From the IMG/VR virus record IMGVR_UViG_3300033121_002167, positions 1 through 64,000 of that record: a stretch of DNA of 64,000 nt; one strand, 5' to 3'. Each line of letters opens with the position of its first letter. Position 1 is the stretch's first letter. Below are positions 2,368 to 19,808 of the stretch, piece after piece. This DNA is from a virus. The notes below the pieces were generated by a model. That model made no database searches, had not been told where the DNA came from, and worked only from the letters and a program-made list of their open reading frames with translations. A program made the translations under genes and the position numbers.

Positions 2368-3309
2368 GTGCAAACCCTCGAAGAAACGTGGTACAATAAA
2401 CCTATGGACGAGACGAACCCTCTCACCGACCAGGTCAATGCACTCGTTGCTTCGGCATCTGCTCTTCCCCCGCCGGCTCTCCCTGCGGACGCTGATGAAG
2501 ACTGGGGTCTTGCTGGCCGCGATCCGGACGCTGCGTGGGCGGACCGCAATGCCCGGAAGCCAGACATCTCTCACCTGAAGCCTGCGCTTGTGGTGGTGGA
2601 CGGTGCTCCCCTCCCGCTCTTTAACATCGGTGACAAGATCGTCATCGAGCGCTATGCTTCTGTCCTGGCAGCGCGTCCGTGGCTCGATACCCTGACGTAC
2701 ACGGTGGAGAGCATCGATGACGAGACTGGTGTGGTGAGTCTCTGGAACGAAGACCTGAAGCAGCATGCCCTGGGCAACTACATCACCGGCCCGAAGAAGG
2801 GTGACGTGTACTGCCTGGCCATCGCCAAGGAGACCATCGGCAAGAAGAAGCGTGGCCGACCGCGAGTTCGACCGTTGCCGCCGGAGGGTGAGCCCAAGCC
2901 TGTCCGCAAGGGGAAGCGCGGTCGCCCGCCTGGTTCCAAGAACCGCCCGAAAGATGTCATCGCTGCAGAGCGTGCTGCCAAGGAGAAGCGCGCAGAGGTC
3001 TCTGCTAAGCGGAAGCGTGGTCGACCGCGGAAGGTGAAGTTACCAGTGGCCCGCAAGAGGTGGACGTTCGGAACGCTGGAGCCTGGCGACTTGCTCTTTT
3101 CTGTCCCGGGCTCGATGCTCAACGAGTACTTGCTCGTCGTTGCAACCGTCCGGAATGAGATGCACGGCGCGTGTCACGATATCGTCACAATGTCAATGAT
3201 CAGCATATCCCCCGACGGGATGACACCGTTCACTGTGAACTTGAACGCTGACAGGAATGATTCAGATTTCTCGCTCCTGTTAAATTTGTTACTGGGAGTA
3301 CCTTTTTGA
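2368..3309 (+). CDS. AT-hook DNA-binding protein fused to C-terminal GDL-family domain
   Basis: three AT-hook cores KRGRPRV / KRGRPPG / KRGRPRK in a K/R/P-rich linker; C-terminal 'LEPGDLLFSVPGSMLNEYLLVVATV' matches array family. Confidence 0.5.
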   Translation: MQTLEETWYNKPMDETNPLTDQVNALVASASALPPPALPADADEDWGLAGRDPDAAWADRNARKPDISHLKPALVVVDGAPLPLFNIGDKIVIERYASVLAARPWLDTLTYTVESIDDETGVVSLWNEDLKQHALGNYITGPKKGDVYCLAIAKETIGKKKRGRPRVRPLPPEGEPKPVRKGKRGRPPGSKNRPKDVIAAERAAKEKRAEVSAKRKRGRPRKVKLPVARKRWTFGTLEPGDLLFSVPGSMLNEYLLVVATVRNEMHGACHDIVTMSMISISPDGMTPFTVNLNADRNDSDFSLLLNLLLGVPF

Positions 3310-3319
3310 GGTTGAACAC

Positions 3320-3646
3320 ATGTTTGGCACCATTATCAACGAAACTGATCGAGCTCGTCTGAAAAAGGCTGGGCTGATGAATTGGCGCGACGTTGCAAAA
3401 GACCTTGTCCCGGGCGATCTTCTTTTCTTCTCCGGACCGGTCTCGACAGCTGCGCCCGGGGTGGTGCAGTATCATACGATGGGTCTTGTGATCTGCAATT
3501 TCGCACGGCCTTGGGATGGCAGCGGTCCTCAACATGGCACCGTGACGTTCATCATCTATTCTTCTACGTACGGCAGGCTCTCCGGGAAGCACGTGTCTAG
3601 AGAATGGAATAAAGGTGACATCAATGAGTACGTTCGAGTTAACTGA
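3320..3646 (+). CDS. GDL-family small protein (array member, N-extended)
   Basis: internal 'DLVPGDLLFFSGP' + central 'LVICNF' strand. Confidence 0.45.
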   Translation: MFGTIINETDRARLKKAGLMNWRDVAKDLVPGDLLFFSGPVSTAAPGVVQYHTMGLVICNFARPWDGSGPQHGTVTFIIYSSTYGRLSGKHVSREWNKGDINEYVRVN

Positions 3647-3895
3647 ATGAAGCTGATGAATCCGAAGTACCTCACATGGCGCGAGATTGGTGATCTTGCC
3701 GTCGGTGACCTGGTCATCTGGCACACCATCGATCGCGATATCTCGTACGAGATCGGACCGCACGTGGAGCTCATCGTGGGCCGGACAGTAGGTGACAGGG
3801 GCATCGAGCTCCTCATGTGGCGAGCTGCGACGGGTCACATGTGGTCAGCCCGTGAGACAGGGACGTTTGAAGATCGGGTGAACAAGGTATCATGA
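3647..3895 (+). CDS. GDL-family small protein (array member)
   Basis: 'AVGDLVIWH', 'ELIVGRT', ATGA coupling with neighbours. Confidence 0.5.
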   Translation: MKLMNPKYLTWREIGDLAVGDLVIWHTIDRDISYEIGPHVELIVGRTVGDRGIELLMWRAATGHMWSARETGTFEDRVNKVS

Positions 3896-4125
3896 TCATG
3901 AAGAACTTGAAGCACGGAGAAGTAAGACCTGGAGACATCTTGGTCTGGGCAACTGACCCTGTCGACGACGACCGCCCGCGCTACGACTTGGTAGTCTCAG
4001 TCCACGTAACTGGTGAATTCGTTTACTACTGGTGTTTTGAGTTGAGCAGCTTGGAAATATGGTCTTCGCAGAGCGCCTACAAGCGCACGCCGCTCACACC
4101 CGACGTTCTCAGGGTTGAGCCATGA
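3892..4125 (+). CDS. GDL-family small protein (array member)
   Basis: 'RPGDILVWA', overlaps neighbours by 4 nt. Confidence 0.5.
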   Translation: MIMKNLKHGEVRPGDILVWATDPVDDDRPRYDLVVSVHVTGEFVYYWCFELSSLEIWSSQSAYKRTPLTPDVLRVEP

Positions 4126-4382
4126 AGGGGCGGGGCGGCTGGCCGTTCATCGATCTTCTGCTACAAGTACCTTTGGCACGCATGGTGCCGGGAGACATCA
4201 TCGTCTTCAGAACCGCGTTTCCAGATCTCCTCATCTACAAGAGCGAACCGCAAGGTGTTAGGCACAAAGACATCACGATCGTCTTCTACCACGATGTCGT
4301 CTTCTACCACGATGGGCAGCTGAAGACGTTCCGCGTGACAACTGAAGCGCGGCTGACTTACATGGTGAAGTGCTCCAAGTGA
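4122..4382 (+). CDS. GDL-family small protein (array member)
   Basis: 'VPGDIIVFR'. Confidence 0.5.
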   Translation: MKGRGGWPFIDLLLQVPLARMVPGDIIVFRTAFPDLLIYKSEPQGVRHKDITIVFYHDVVFYHDGQLKTFRVTTEARLTYMVKCSK

Positions 4383-4492
4383 AATATGAGGATCAAGAAT
4401 GGCGGTCGAGCGGCGGTGGAGCGCGGCCCGGAGACTCTTGCGAGAGCCAAATTCATCGCTGTGAGCATATTCCCACCCAGTGCACACAACCC

Positions 4493-18149: not shown

Positions 18150-18377
18150 GTGACCGACACCTTTAAGAGCGGTGATCTCGTTCGCCTCGAAGCGGACGGC
18201 AAGTTCTTGAGCGTGAACGTATGGTCGATAAAAAGCAACGATCAATGCATAAAAGGTCTAGATCGAAACAGCATTGCCCTAGTGATCAATTACATCGATG
18301 GTTCTTTGCTGCTTCTGGTGAACGAATCGGTCGGCTGGATTCACGATCCGATATTTCTTGGGATACGGCACCTATGA
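18150..18377 (+). CDS. GDL-family small protein (GTG start)
   Basis: 'FKSGDLVRL','IALVINY'. Confidence 0.45.
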   Translation: MTDTFKSGDLVRLEADGKFLSVNVWSIKSNDQCIKGLDRNSIALVINYIDGSLLLLVNESVGWIHDPIFLGIRHL

Positions 18378-18601
18378 GCAGAATAAAACCAGGTGACCTC
18401 GTTCAACTTAATGAAAACAGCCCATACGCAGCGATATACCTTCGCAATGAACGCGGCATAGCTAGAAACACAGAACAATCAAGGGTCTGCAAAGCAGACG
18501 TTAGCATCGTGCTAGCTATCATCAATGGCGATCTGTTCGTGATGTGCCGCGATCGGATTGGTTGGACTTCATTTACGACGTACTTTAACGTGGTATCATG
18601 A
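18374..18601 (+). CDS. GDL-family small protein (array member; internal start of ORF 18221..18601)
   Basis: 'IKPGDLVQL','SIVLAII'. Confidence 0.45.
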   Translation: MSRIKPGDLVQLNENSPYAAIYLRNERGIARNTEQSRVCKADVSIVLAIINGDLFVMCRDRIGWTSFTTYFNVVS

Positions 18602-18828
18602 CCCTCTACAAGCCAGGATCTCTAGTGCAATCTTCGCACGAAGTTCACCTTTATTTGAGGTCTAAAACCGATGGCGACATTGATAACTCGGCTGGCTTCG
18701 TGCTTGGTGGAACGCTCATGACAGTGATATCAGTGAATGAAACTGAAGAAGGTAGCGTAGATTTGCTGGTCTACACGGGTGATTCGATTGGTTGGGTTTA
18801 CTCTCGCTACGTTAGATTCATCTCATGA
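18598..18828 (+). CDS. GDL-family small protein (array member)
   Basis: 'YKPGSLVQS','VDLLVYTGDSIGWVY'. Confidence 0.5.
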   Translation: MTLYKPGSLVQSSHEVHLYLRSKTDGDIDNSAGFVLGGTLMTVISVNETEEGSVDLLVYTGDSIGWVYSRYVRFIS

Positions 18829-19057
18829 TCGCTGGTGAGCTCGTCAAGCCGTGCAAAAACGTAATCGGCGTGTATTACATCGGAGCCAGCCGCAACGTTG
18901 ATGGCGAAATAATGTTCTACAAACATGATAAATTGGTGAAGCGTACCGACATGTACGTGTACATCACAAACATTAAGTAGGCCGGCACTGACTACAGCAT
19001 GCTTCTTCTAGGCGATCAGATGGTGTATTTGTACTGTGGGGAAGTTGATCCGATATG
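18825..19057 (+). pseudogene. GDL-family member interrupted by stop/frameshift
   Basis: N-part MIAGELVKP...VYYIG...ITNIK* (18825..18980); C-part 'MLLLGDQMVYLYCGEVDPI' only in another frame (18995..19057). Confidence 0.35.
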
Positions 19058-19273
19058 AAATCAGGTGACCTTCTTGTCTTCAACAGAAGAAAGCGGTTCG
19101 TGAGCGTCTACAGATCCAAGCCAGACATCACAACAACCAGGGGCAAAGTCATGCTAGGTGCTCACTTGGCGGTTGCTCTCATCATTGAACCGATGCACTC
19201 TTTCGTGCTTCTGACAGGCAATGGTGATATCAGGATGCGATGGGTTGAAACCCAGGATCTGACTGAGGCATGA
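19055..19273 (+). CDS. GDL-family small protein (array member)
   Basis: 'MKSGDLLVF','FVLLTGNGDIRM'. Confidence 0.5.
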   Translation: MKSGDLLVFNRRKRFVSVYRSKPDITTTRGKVMLGAHLAVALIIEPMHSFVLLTGNGDIRMRWVETQDLTEA

Positions 19274-19503
19274 CTTACAGCGTAGGCGATCTAATCAAGC
19301 TAAGCCCACACATGTATCACACATCGATGCGGGTTGGCAACTTGCGTGAAGTGCACGGTAAGCTAGTAAACATCATGCCAGATGATCTCATGATTGTTCT
19401 TGGTGGATTCATCCTTGCTGAAGAGTACCAGTACTTGTTTGTCATGAGTGCGAGTCACAATGAGATTGGTTTTGTTTCTGCACGCGCTATGGAGCGCGCA
19501 TGA
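19270..19503 (+). CDS. GDL-family small protein (array member)
   Basis: 'YSVGDLIKL','LMIVLGG'. Confidence 0.5.
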   Translation: MTYSVGDLIKLSPHMYHTSMRVGNLREVHGKLVNIMPDDLMIVLGGFILAEEYQYLFVMSASHNEIGFVSARAMERA

Positions 19504-19808
19504 ACATCAGAGACTTGAAGTCTGGTGATCTGATCGTTTGCACAAGACGTTCTTCTCTGTGGTATCCTACAACGAACAGGTACTATCATGGAGAAGTTGT
19601 GCACAACGGTGACATAGCGATCGTTGTCTCGTACAACGTGCAGCACAGCGATTCGTCGTCCAGGGACATGTACAGCATAACAGTCATCTGGAGGGGCTCA
19701 GTGTGTCGAACTCACGTGTCTATCGATGCAACAGCGCTAGCATGGTCGACAATCGACGGTGAACCGCTAGAGATATTACTCTTTGTACAAGCAACAGCCA
19801 GTAGGTGA
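19500..19808 (+). CDS. GDL-family small protein (last array member, 102 aa)
   Basis: 'LKSGDLIVC','IAIVVSY'. Confidence 0.5.
   Translation: MNIRDLKSGDLIVCTRRSSLWYPTTNRYYHGEVVHNGDIAIVVSYNVQHSDSSSRDMYSITVIWRGSVCRTHVSIDATALAWSTIDGEPLEILLFVQATASR

Follow-up and report, generated by a model that had tools for sequence, protein, structure and literature searches.

What use can a phage make of some 65 versions of one small gene, lined up back-to-back? The question is raised by IMG/VR virus record IMGVR_UViG_3300033121_002167, of which positions 1 to 64,000 were analysed (64 kb; hereafter the window, to which all coordinates refer unless another locus is named). On its + strand lies an array of about 65 paralogues of ancient divergence, all from one single-domain family of about 75 residues, carried by a huge phage. 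An array of this size would be exceptional for phages, in which families of paralogues mostly stay below about 20 members. To our knowledge, no counterpart in phages has been described for ~65 single-domain paralogues in one array and a pan-repertoire above 100, and in the literature on tandem small-gene arrays in huge or jumbo phages we found no description of this family. Tentatively, and with somewhat less than even confidence, we favour the view that the array is a co-expressed repertoire of cytoplasmic protein binders directed against variable host proteins.

The + strand from 3320 to 19808 is a chain of 68 consecutive small open reading frames (ORFs) with few gaps; a large gene coding for an 895-aa protein similar to the major vault protein (MVP) comes next. 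A family hidden Markov model (HMM) of 72 positions, seeded with 47 clear members, was searched against the 1,216 six-frame stop-to-stop segments of the window. At E<=0.05 it matches 62 segments on the + strand, all inside 3871-19805, and it also picks up two solitary + strand copies at 28876-29076 and 29730-29969. On the minus strand not one segment falls below E 0.01. Members which were not part of the seed are recovered, e.g., 7232-7405 (1e-8) and 7804-8049 (7e-8). An iterated profile yields 56 + strand and 0 minus-strand matches at E<1e-3. Member length has a median of 75 aa and ranges from 50 to 116 aa. An initial annotation of this DNA had claimed a tandem array of small paralogous genes on one strand, and the ORF chain together with the family HMM confirms it. 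That annotation had named two findings which could overturn the claim, an HMM self-comparison without a shared profile and an assembly artefact. The shared profile holds in a split-half test: with an HMM from the 32 members of the first half, 23 of the 26 members in the second half score higher than the 99th percentile of shuffled sequences, and in the reverse search 30 of 32 do so. The artefact is excluded because an independent assembly, Logan contig SRR32380191_63502 (16,213 bp), is 99.988% identical to 5227-21439 of the window with zero gaps.

What do the members have in common? By strict patterns the GDL-like motif is present in 57 of 62 members, an h-Y-L-G-like motif in 37, and L-P-x-G in 13. 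The conserved columns are G7 (59/62), L9 (52/62), D8 (47/62) and the glycine of the turn, G56 (42/62). In eight members G-W-[VI] replaces the P-x-G turn, and seven of these sit in the 3' block of the array. Thus, the architecture is shared, as initially annotated, but the uniformity of three motifs in all members had been overstated. Conservation is confined to the scaffold, i.e., the turn glycine(s), the G-D-L strand and hydrophobic core residues. The loop between strands 1 and 2 varies widely in length and sequence among the members, as does the surface, and a conserved polar cluster is absent from all 62. A signal peptide or lipobox is found in none of the 62 members; the proteins begin directly at the first β-strand. 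Cysteine is frequent (2.7%, compared with 0.9% for 11 further large proteins encoded in the window). A zinc-binding cysteine pattern was considered as the cause and rejected, because the cysteines occupy core strand columns and a metal site is therefore not indicated.

Which fold do these sequences adopt? The AlphaFold2 (AF2) model of member 10808-11029 has a pLDDT of 94.1 and a pTM of 0.79, and it predicts an SH3-like small β-barrel of the broad SH3 clan, i.e., a compact antiparallel barrel of five to six strands and ~60-75 residues. Scans of 50 members against Pfam, PHROGs, NCBIfam and PADLOC returned nothing meaningful. Pfam SH3_3 (PF08239) matched 0 of 50 members even at E<=1, the thresholds of SH3_3, SH3_4 and GW were not reached, and KOW, Tudor and Sm gave no match among the scanned members. 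Pfam at E<=1 gave 19 scattered single-member matches, none of them consistent, including a stray SH3_CYT4 at 0.0046; a sequence profile search of the PDB yielded nothing significant. An hhalign comparison of the family with 20 SH3_3 repeats attained 87% probability (E 3.7e-6), but over 37 C-terminal columns only, the region in which the G-W-[VI] turn is situated. The small barrels which the model resembles are of many kinds: the Xrn1 SH3/Tudor-like domain, InlB GW domains, NdhS, PsaE, Tudor domains, the KOW domains of Spt5 and NusG, the SH3b domains of NlpC/P60 proteins and endolysins, and YorP. Foldseek against the PDB returned these same kinds, weakly and generically, and against BFVD uncharacterised small phage proteins only. 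The SH3_3 profile link and the fold evidence together support the SH3-like fold which the initial annotation had offered as a guess.

A HMMER search over 1.84 billion representative proteins produced 77 clusters at E<1e-3. The majority of the clusters are orthologues belonging to this phage lineage. Small, independent proteins with the layout M-K-P-G-D-L-V ... G-x-[IV]-G-W-V ... L make up some of the others; long proteins of genuine SH3_3 repeats (Pfam 5.7e-46) account for a few, and β-propeller false positives for a few more. The same search returned a 727-aa protein (P0016) which carries similar domains as six tandem repeats in polyprotein style. Each repeat consists of an F-x-[IV]-G-D-L-V-K-L-K barrel and an F-K-I-G-E-x-V-I barrel, with weak similarity to Pfam KOWx and SH3_15. 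It seems most apt to describe the family as a new branch of SH3-like barrels, as yet unnamed, distantly linked to bacterial SH3 domains and outside Pfam SH3_3. The SH3-like fold is known already, as are tandem repertoires in bacteria and in large eukaryotic viruses; new is an unnamed family for which Pfam, PHROGs and NCBIfam have no model.

The link to bacterial SH3 domains raises the question whether the members are stand-alone SH3b-type binders of peptidoglycan which aid lysis, adsorption or superinfection exclusion on different hosts. In addition to the profile link to SH3_3 repeats a precedent may be cited: the lysis cassettes of Drexlerviridae include a stand-alone SH3 gene (DUF7244; PMC13164509), like the members a small phage protein of SH3 fold. 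However, DUF7244 comes as a single copy linked to the lysis cassette, and lysis genes are not found near the array. Compared with bacterial SH3 (SH3b) proteins the members remain below any Pfam SH3 or GW threshold, their N-terminal half (M-K-x-G-D-L-V plus the hypervariable insert) is unaligned, and they are stand-alone products of ~65 tandem phage genes that lack the signal peptide and the attached hydrolase. Further, the membrane-anchored relatives described below appear to hold the domain in the cytoplasm. A role at the cell wall is thus very unlikely.

How would such a set of genes be expressed? Neighbouring members share 4 nt (ATGA) at 36 and 1 nt (TGATG) at 5 of 61 junctions. The initial annotation had seen such overlaps at almost every junction; they are real, but make up two thirds of the total (41/61). 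TGA is the stop in 56 and ATG the start in 51 of the 62 members, and Shine-Dalgarno-like 4-mers precede 29 of 62 member starts against a background of 16%. A consensus scan showed no excess of promoter-like or terminator-like sites. We propose that the whole array would be transcribed as one message. The ATGA stop/start overlaps would couple translation and, as a consequence, the full set would be produced together and in roughly similar amounts. Each member may be a stoichiometric binder of a different protein target, located either in the cytoplasm of the host or on the inner side of the membrane. With each member binding a different target, the array would be a pre-emptive repertoire by which variable host proteins, be they defence effectors, toxins or takeover targets, are neutralised or redirected, and in this manner would shape the host range.

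How old is this diversity? Within the window the closest paralogue of each member is 25-45% identical at the protein level. Closest paralogues are clustered along the array (median distance 6 genes versus 18 under permutation), and there are hints of an old block duplication which connects 6137-7804 with 8703-9676. There is no direct repeat longer than 35 nt in 2300-20000, TRF finds none, and an Rfam scan of the window is empty at gathering thresholds. A CRISPR array is rejected, as it was in the initial annotation, since short identical direct repeats at a regular period were not found by TRF or otherwise and Rfam is silent. A diversity-generating retroelement is likewise rejected; there is no repeat pair and, in a Pfam scan, no reverse transcriptase among the 20 larger ORFs of the window. 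The initial annotation had spoken of an old, diversifying family instead of a recent repeat, and of a diversity-generating repertoire. Age and divergence are borne out by paralogues which are at most 45% identical and by the lack of DNA repeats. The generation of diversity is not: a signal of such a retroelement is missing and, as shown next, orthologues are under purifying selection with a dN/dS of about 0.25.

The array is carried by five independent datasets. Related loci were compared from SRR250183xx and SRR25018417 (L002-L005), from SRR237024xx and two JGI metagenomes (L006-L009), and from IMG/VR (L012). All are packed with family members on the same strand, with zero matches on the minus strand. 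These loci follow the window collinearly, in blocks with a nucleotide identity of 82-92% (90-98% for L012); even in L012 the blocks are broken by cassette-sized segments without DNA similarity. Pooled dN/dS amounts to 0.29 against L002 and 0.24 against L006, with ~30 orthologue pairs per comparison; for core-array orthologues in L002, L006 and L012 the range is 0.24-0.32. Evidently, these are real genes under constraint. A faster evolution of the variable insert than of the scaffold between orthologues was considered and rejected, as dN/dS is 0.25 in insert and 0.27 in profile-match positions. Equal values mean that each paralogue is individually conserved, loops included.

These numbers also bear on the proposition that the array has no present function, i.e., that it is a product of selfish or neutral amplification, a set of spurious ORFs, or a mis-assembled collapsed repeat. 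Some copies are indeed decayed, the family has no assigned function, and its distribution is very narrow. Against it stand the dN/dS of 0.24-0.29, the AF2 model with a pLDDT of 94, the five datasets with one assembly 99.99% identical, and paralogues too diverged for an assembly collapse. This proposition is already largely refuted and we consider it hardly credible.

The conserved members account for part of each locus. At a cutoff of at least 60% identity, an orthologue in the window is lacking for 35 of 64 family members in L002 and for 30 of 62 in L006, and L002 contains 64 members across an interval which contains 45 in the window. With a best paralogue in the same locus that is at most 45% identical, these strain-specific genes did not arise by recent duplication. 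Whole-gene differences between relatives, the age of the strain-specific members, and pseudogenes in the gaps, taken together, indicate that an old pool of well over 100 distinct cassettes has been turning over by birth and death; an exchange of whole genes probably contributes. The diversity is standing and ancient, and it is reshuffled by gain and loss of whole genes. A more distant locus, L013, in which the MVP-like protein is 64% identical, has about ten longer, very divergent copies interspersed with other genes. Small runs of the family, joined by stop/start overlaps, occur in short unrelated metagenome contigs (G+C 31-58%) and in a 274-kb NCBI contig. The picture is one of a family which usually forms small clusters and which underwent, long ago in this lineage, an expansion to 60-100 genes per genome.

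In mid-array L002 has two variants, 10767-11210 and 11210-11677 (147 and 155 aa; also in L003, L004, L006 and L008), in which an N-terminal transmembrane helix precedes the family domain. The linker between helix and domain is positively charged, which suggests that the family domain is cytoplasmic in these variants. Their orthologue in the window (12643-12885) has no helix.

Tandem blocks of paralogues are familiar from large eukaryotic viruses. The MGF360/505 genes of African swine fever virus and the amplification of K3L in poxviruses are tied to host range and immune evasion. Like these multigene families or 'genomic accordions' the array consists of tandem paralogues in a large DNA virus, and its content varies between isolates by gain and loss. 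It differs in its unit, one domain of 75 aa, and in its bacterial host. An accordion in the strict sense, that is a recent adaptive amplification, was rejected: paralogues are at most 45% identical, DNA-level repeats are absent and, without recent near-identical copies, the array is not an active accordion.

Another parallel is found in bacteria. The homogeneous polyimmunity loci of polymorphic toxin systems, described by Zhang, Aravind and colleagues (2012), contain distant paralogues in the same orientation which differ from strain to strain, and their short spacers imply one polycistronic message (PMC3482391). By analogy, the organisation of the array matches these loci point for point: uninterrupted small genes of one superfamily on the same strand, short or no spacers, distant paralogues (here 25-45% identical) and a content that differs between strains. 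Differences exist as well. Polyimmunity loci are bacterial and the array belongs to a phage, its fold is outside the listed immunity families (SUKH, Imm6, Imm11 and others), no association with toxins is known for it, and it is several-fold larger. By the same analogy the differences in content between close relatives may reflect the turnover typical of conflict loci.

The repertoire of protein binders, which we favour, can be narrowed to a counter-immunity library. The members, made from a coupled message, would be specialised, each to inhibit or act as a decoy for a separate defence or toxin effector of the host, and more than 100 exchanged cassettes would set the host range. We regard this narrower version as possible, if rather doubtful. 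A single-gene precedent exists in Nip, a counter-defence protein of 279 aa from phage Phi3T, which reportedly forms a complex with the defence protein SpbK and with YonE (PMC11984713). It joins two SH3-like domains to a nucleoid-protein-like domain which resembles the HU dimerisation domain (PMC11984713). Nip shares with the array that it is a phage protein with SH3-like domains; it is, however, a single gene and not an array, and the comparison is by layout and not by sequence.

Several observations weigh against a repertoire of host-protein binders. None of the members is linked to a target, toxin or defence gene. Nor did any match a characterised inhibitor, although no library of anti-defence proteins was searched. 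Positive selection, a feature of many arms-race proteins, is not apparent from dN/dS. The SH3-like fold is generic and thus cannot by itself indicate function. A tblastn search with the Cpn60 of the window gives ~45% identity to many unrelated phages and points to no particular host. Finally, the AT-hook protein encoded next to the array hints at a DNA-associated role, and the conserved synteny with the MVP-like gene is not accounted for; these two neighbours are dealt with in the following. The neighbourhoods of independent homologues (L014-L018) contained no toxin domain, only more small genes alike.

Just upstream of the array, at 2368-3309 (+), is an ORF of 313 aa with a barrel-like N-terminal segment (GD-[IV]-V) and three AT-hook-like GRP motifs. 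Its C-terminal tail (about 3070-3309) has the family-like motifs LEPGDLLF, YLLVVATV and ISPDGMTPFTV, which were judged by eye and not scored by the HMM. The ORF has no Pfam or PHROGs match. A syntenic homologue (L013:1126-1731) possesses the AT-hook and is devoid of the C-terminal tail. This protein may be a DNA-tethered version of the family, the AT-hook part being conserved and syntenic in a distant relative. Its layout of barrel-like segments plus AT-hooks recalls that of Nip.

Are the members, then, nucleic-acid- or nucleoid-associated small barrels akin to KOW, Tudor, PWWP or Sm-like domains, which bind DNA or RNA or dock on DNA-bound proteins and would remodel the use of the host or phage chromosome? 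The upstream gene, in which family-like barrels are joined to three AT-hooks and which is syntenic in L013, speaks for it, as do the genes for DNA replication and repair around the array and the structural resemblances to KOW and Tudor domains. On the other hand, the median isoelectric point of the members is 6.2, with 25 acidic, 26 neutral and 11 basic proteins (n=62), and this mostly acidic to neutral character argues against general nucleic-acid binding. A conserved basic or aromatic surface motif is absent, the Pfam models for KOW, Tudor and Sm are unmatched, and sixty-five distinct generic nucleic-acid binders are hard to rationalise. We consider a nucleic-acid-directed function unlikely.

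Downstream, 15 nt past the array and on the same strand, follows the MVP-like gene (19824-22511; 895 aa; Pfam MVP_shoulder 2e-30, Vault_3, Vault and Band_7). For a phage to carry a homologue of the vault shell is already unusual. Within the phage collection the gene has relatives only in LR756500, LR756501 and LR756503, uncultured huge phages of 462-735 kb, with 41-45% aa identity; in IMG/VR a 140-kb contig matches at 99% and a 42-kb contig at 64%. No terminator-like site was found between the array and this gene, and the two are possibly co-transcribed.

The proximity suggests another role, in which the members would be internal proteins that are packaged and ejected, or cargo or partners of the MVP-like shell, i.e., alternative passengers into the cell or into a compartment built by the phage. 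It is in line with the distance of 15 nt, with the lack of a terminator-like site in between, and with the order of AT-hook gene, SH3-like cluster and MVP gene which is preserved in L013. Moreover, T4-type phages possess hypervariable loci for internal proteins. Yet a capsid-targeting or cleavage motif is absent, and in the AF2 model the conserved N-terminus is a structural strand. In L013 a 342-aa ORF of a different kind (8880-9908) separates the cluster from the MVP gene. LR756500 and LR756501 have MVP genes and no array within 20 kb of them, the gene order being different there, and the window offers no structural-gene context. Passengers of a capsid or vault-like shell are, in our estimation, quite unlikely.

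Should the members bind host proteins specifically, as the preferred reading of a binder repertoire holds, the array would be a natural library of ~65 compact inhibitors or adaptors of 75 residues, and of more than 100 across relatives. Each member would then point to a host factor of importance in infection by huge phages, possibly including new defence systems. It would follow that phages too, like bacteria and large eukaryotic viruses, hold large standing repertoires and not only single counter-defence genes, which would help to explain the use of the extra coding capacity in huge phages. In case of a counter-immunity library the array would be the viral mirror image of the bacterial polyimmunity loci. 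The locus makes the purpose of the extra genes of huge phages directly testable.

The array is not homogeneous along its length. It starts with a divergent 5' block (3320-5037, +) of six consecutive ORFs in the chain, 3320-3646, 3647-3895, 3898-4125, 4122-4382, 4379-4771 and 4768-5037, with a [PV]GD[LI] motif, a higher G+C content (0.55) and weak HMM support (E 5e-4 for 3898-4125, above 0.2 for the others). The AF2 model of ORF 3647-3892 (pLDDT 81.8, pTM 0.70) shows the strand order of the family, from an input alignment which contained the family. G+C is 0.55-0.56 in 2001-6000, i.e., at the 5' end of the array and in the upstream gene, and 0.47-0.50 across the rest of the array. It is in this high-G+C end that the most divergent members are located, along with degenerate ORFs at 4379-5557; a 31-nt repeat (4615-4645 and 4845-4875) is common to these ORFs.

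A partial member at 5342-5557 (+) is family-like in its C-terminal half and lacks the N-terminal GDL strand; its HMM E-value is 3e-3 (profile columns 29-69) and that of the iterated profile is 2e-8 (columns 36-76). The core array, 5544-16031 (+), is mostly ATGA-joined and has 45 HMM-supported members plus the weakly supported ORFs 12870-13106 and 14062-14337. Its gaps contain debris. At 7009-7089 (+) the intergenic sequence, read by eye, is the remnant of a decayed member (HGDLLLP...), and at 10065-10156 (+) an internally deleted member is left as VGDLL ... MLPNGKVVSTLASEVK (HMM E 0.42 on segment 10046-10150). At 16032-16242 (+) follows a frameshifted pseudogene with its N- and C-halves in different frames; the HMM recognises columns 8-25 in 16015-16125 (E 0.05) and columns 41-79 in 16068-16238 (E 4e-4). 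The 3' block (16243-19808, +) consists of 15 members, seven of which have the SH3b-like G-W-[VI] turn and not P-x-G.

The two solitary + strand members are 9-10 kb downstream of the array. The one at 28876-29076 is weak (HMM E 0.03 and 0.018) and its sequence starts MLTIRPGDLVKL...; the other at 29730-29969 is better supported (E 2e-4) and has a representative cluster of its own, P0042. Next to them, near 30 kb, gene blocks of the + and - strands converge and the cumulative GC skew reaches its peak.

The window as a whole is a non-structural part of a very large phage genome. It codes for a fragment of a DnaB-like helicase, a 5'-3' exonuclease and an RNA ligase. A cluster at 30571-37945 (-) encodes Cpn60, UvdE, an AAA ATPase with an N-terminal zinc ribbon, an ADP-ribosylglycohydrolase, which could be a counter-defence enzyme, and an Fpg-type glycosylase. 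At 41651-43633 (-) lies a gene for a papain-family (C1) cysteine protease, into which an intein that contains an HNH endonuclease is inserted. ARAGORN predicts a tRNA-Leu(TAA) at 1478-1561 (+); Rfam at gathering thresholds reports no tRNA in the window. Small tandem families seem to be common in huge-phage genomes: LR756500 (462 kb; L010) has, at 11197-12049, three tandem paralogues of ~94 aa which belong to a different family (MNKKI..E.EKE..I..YF...).

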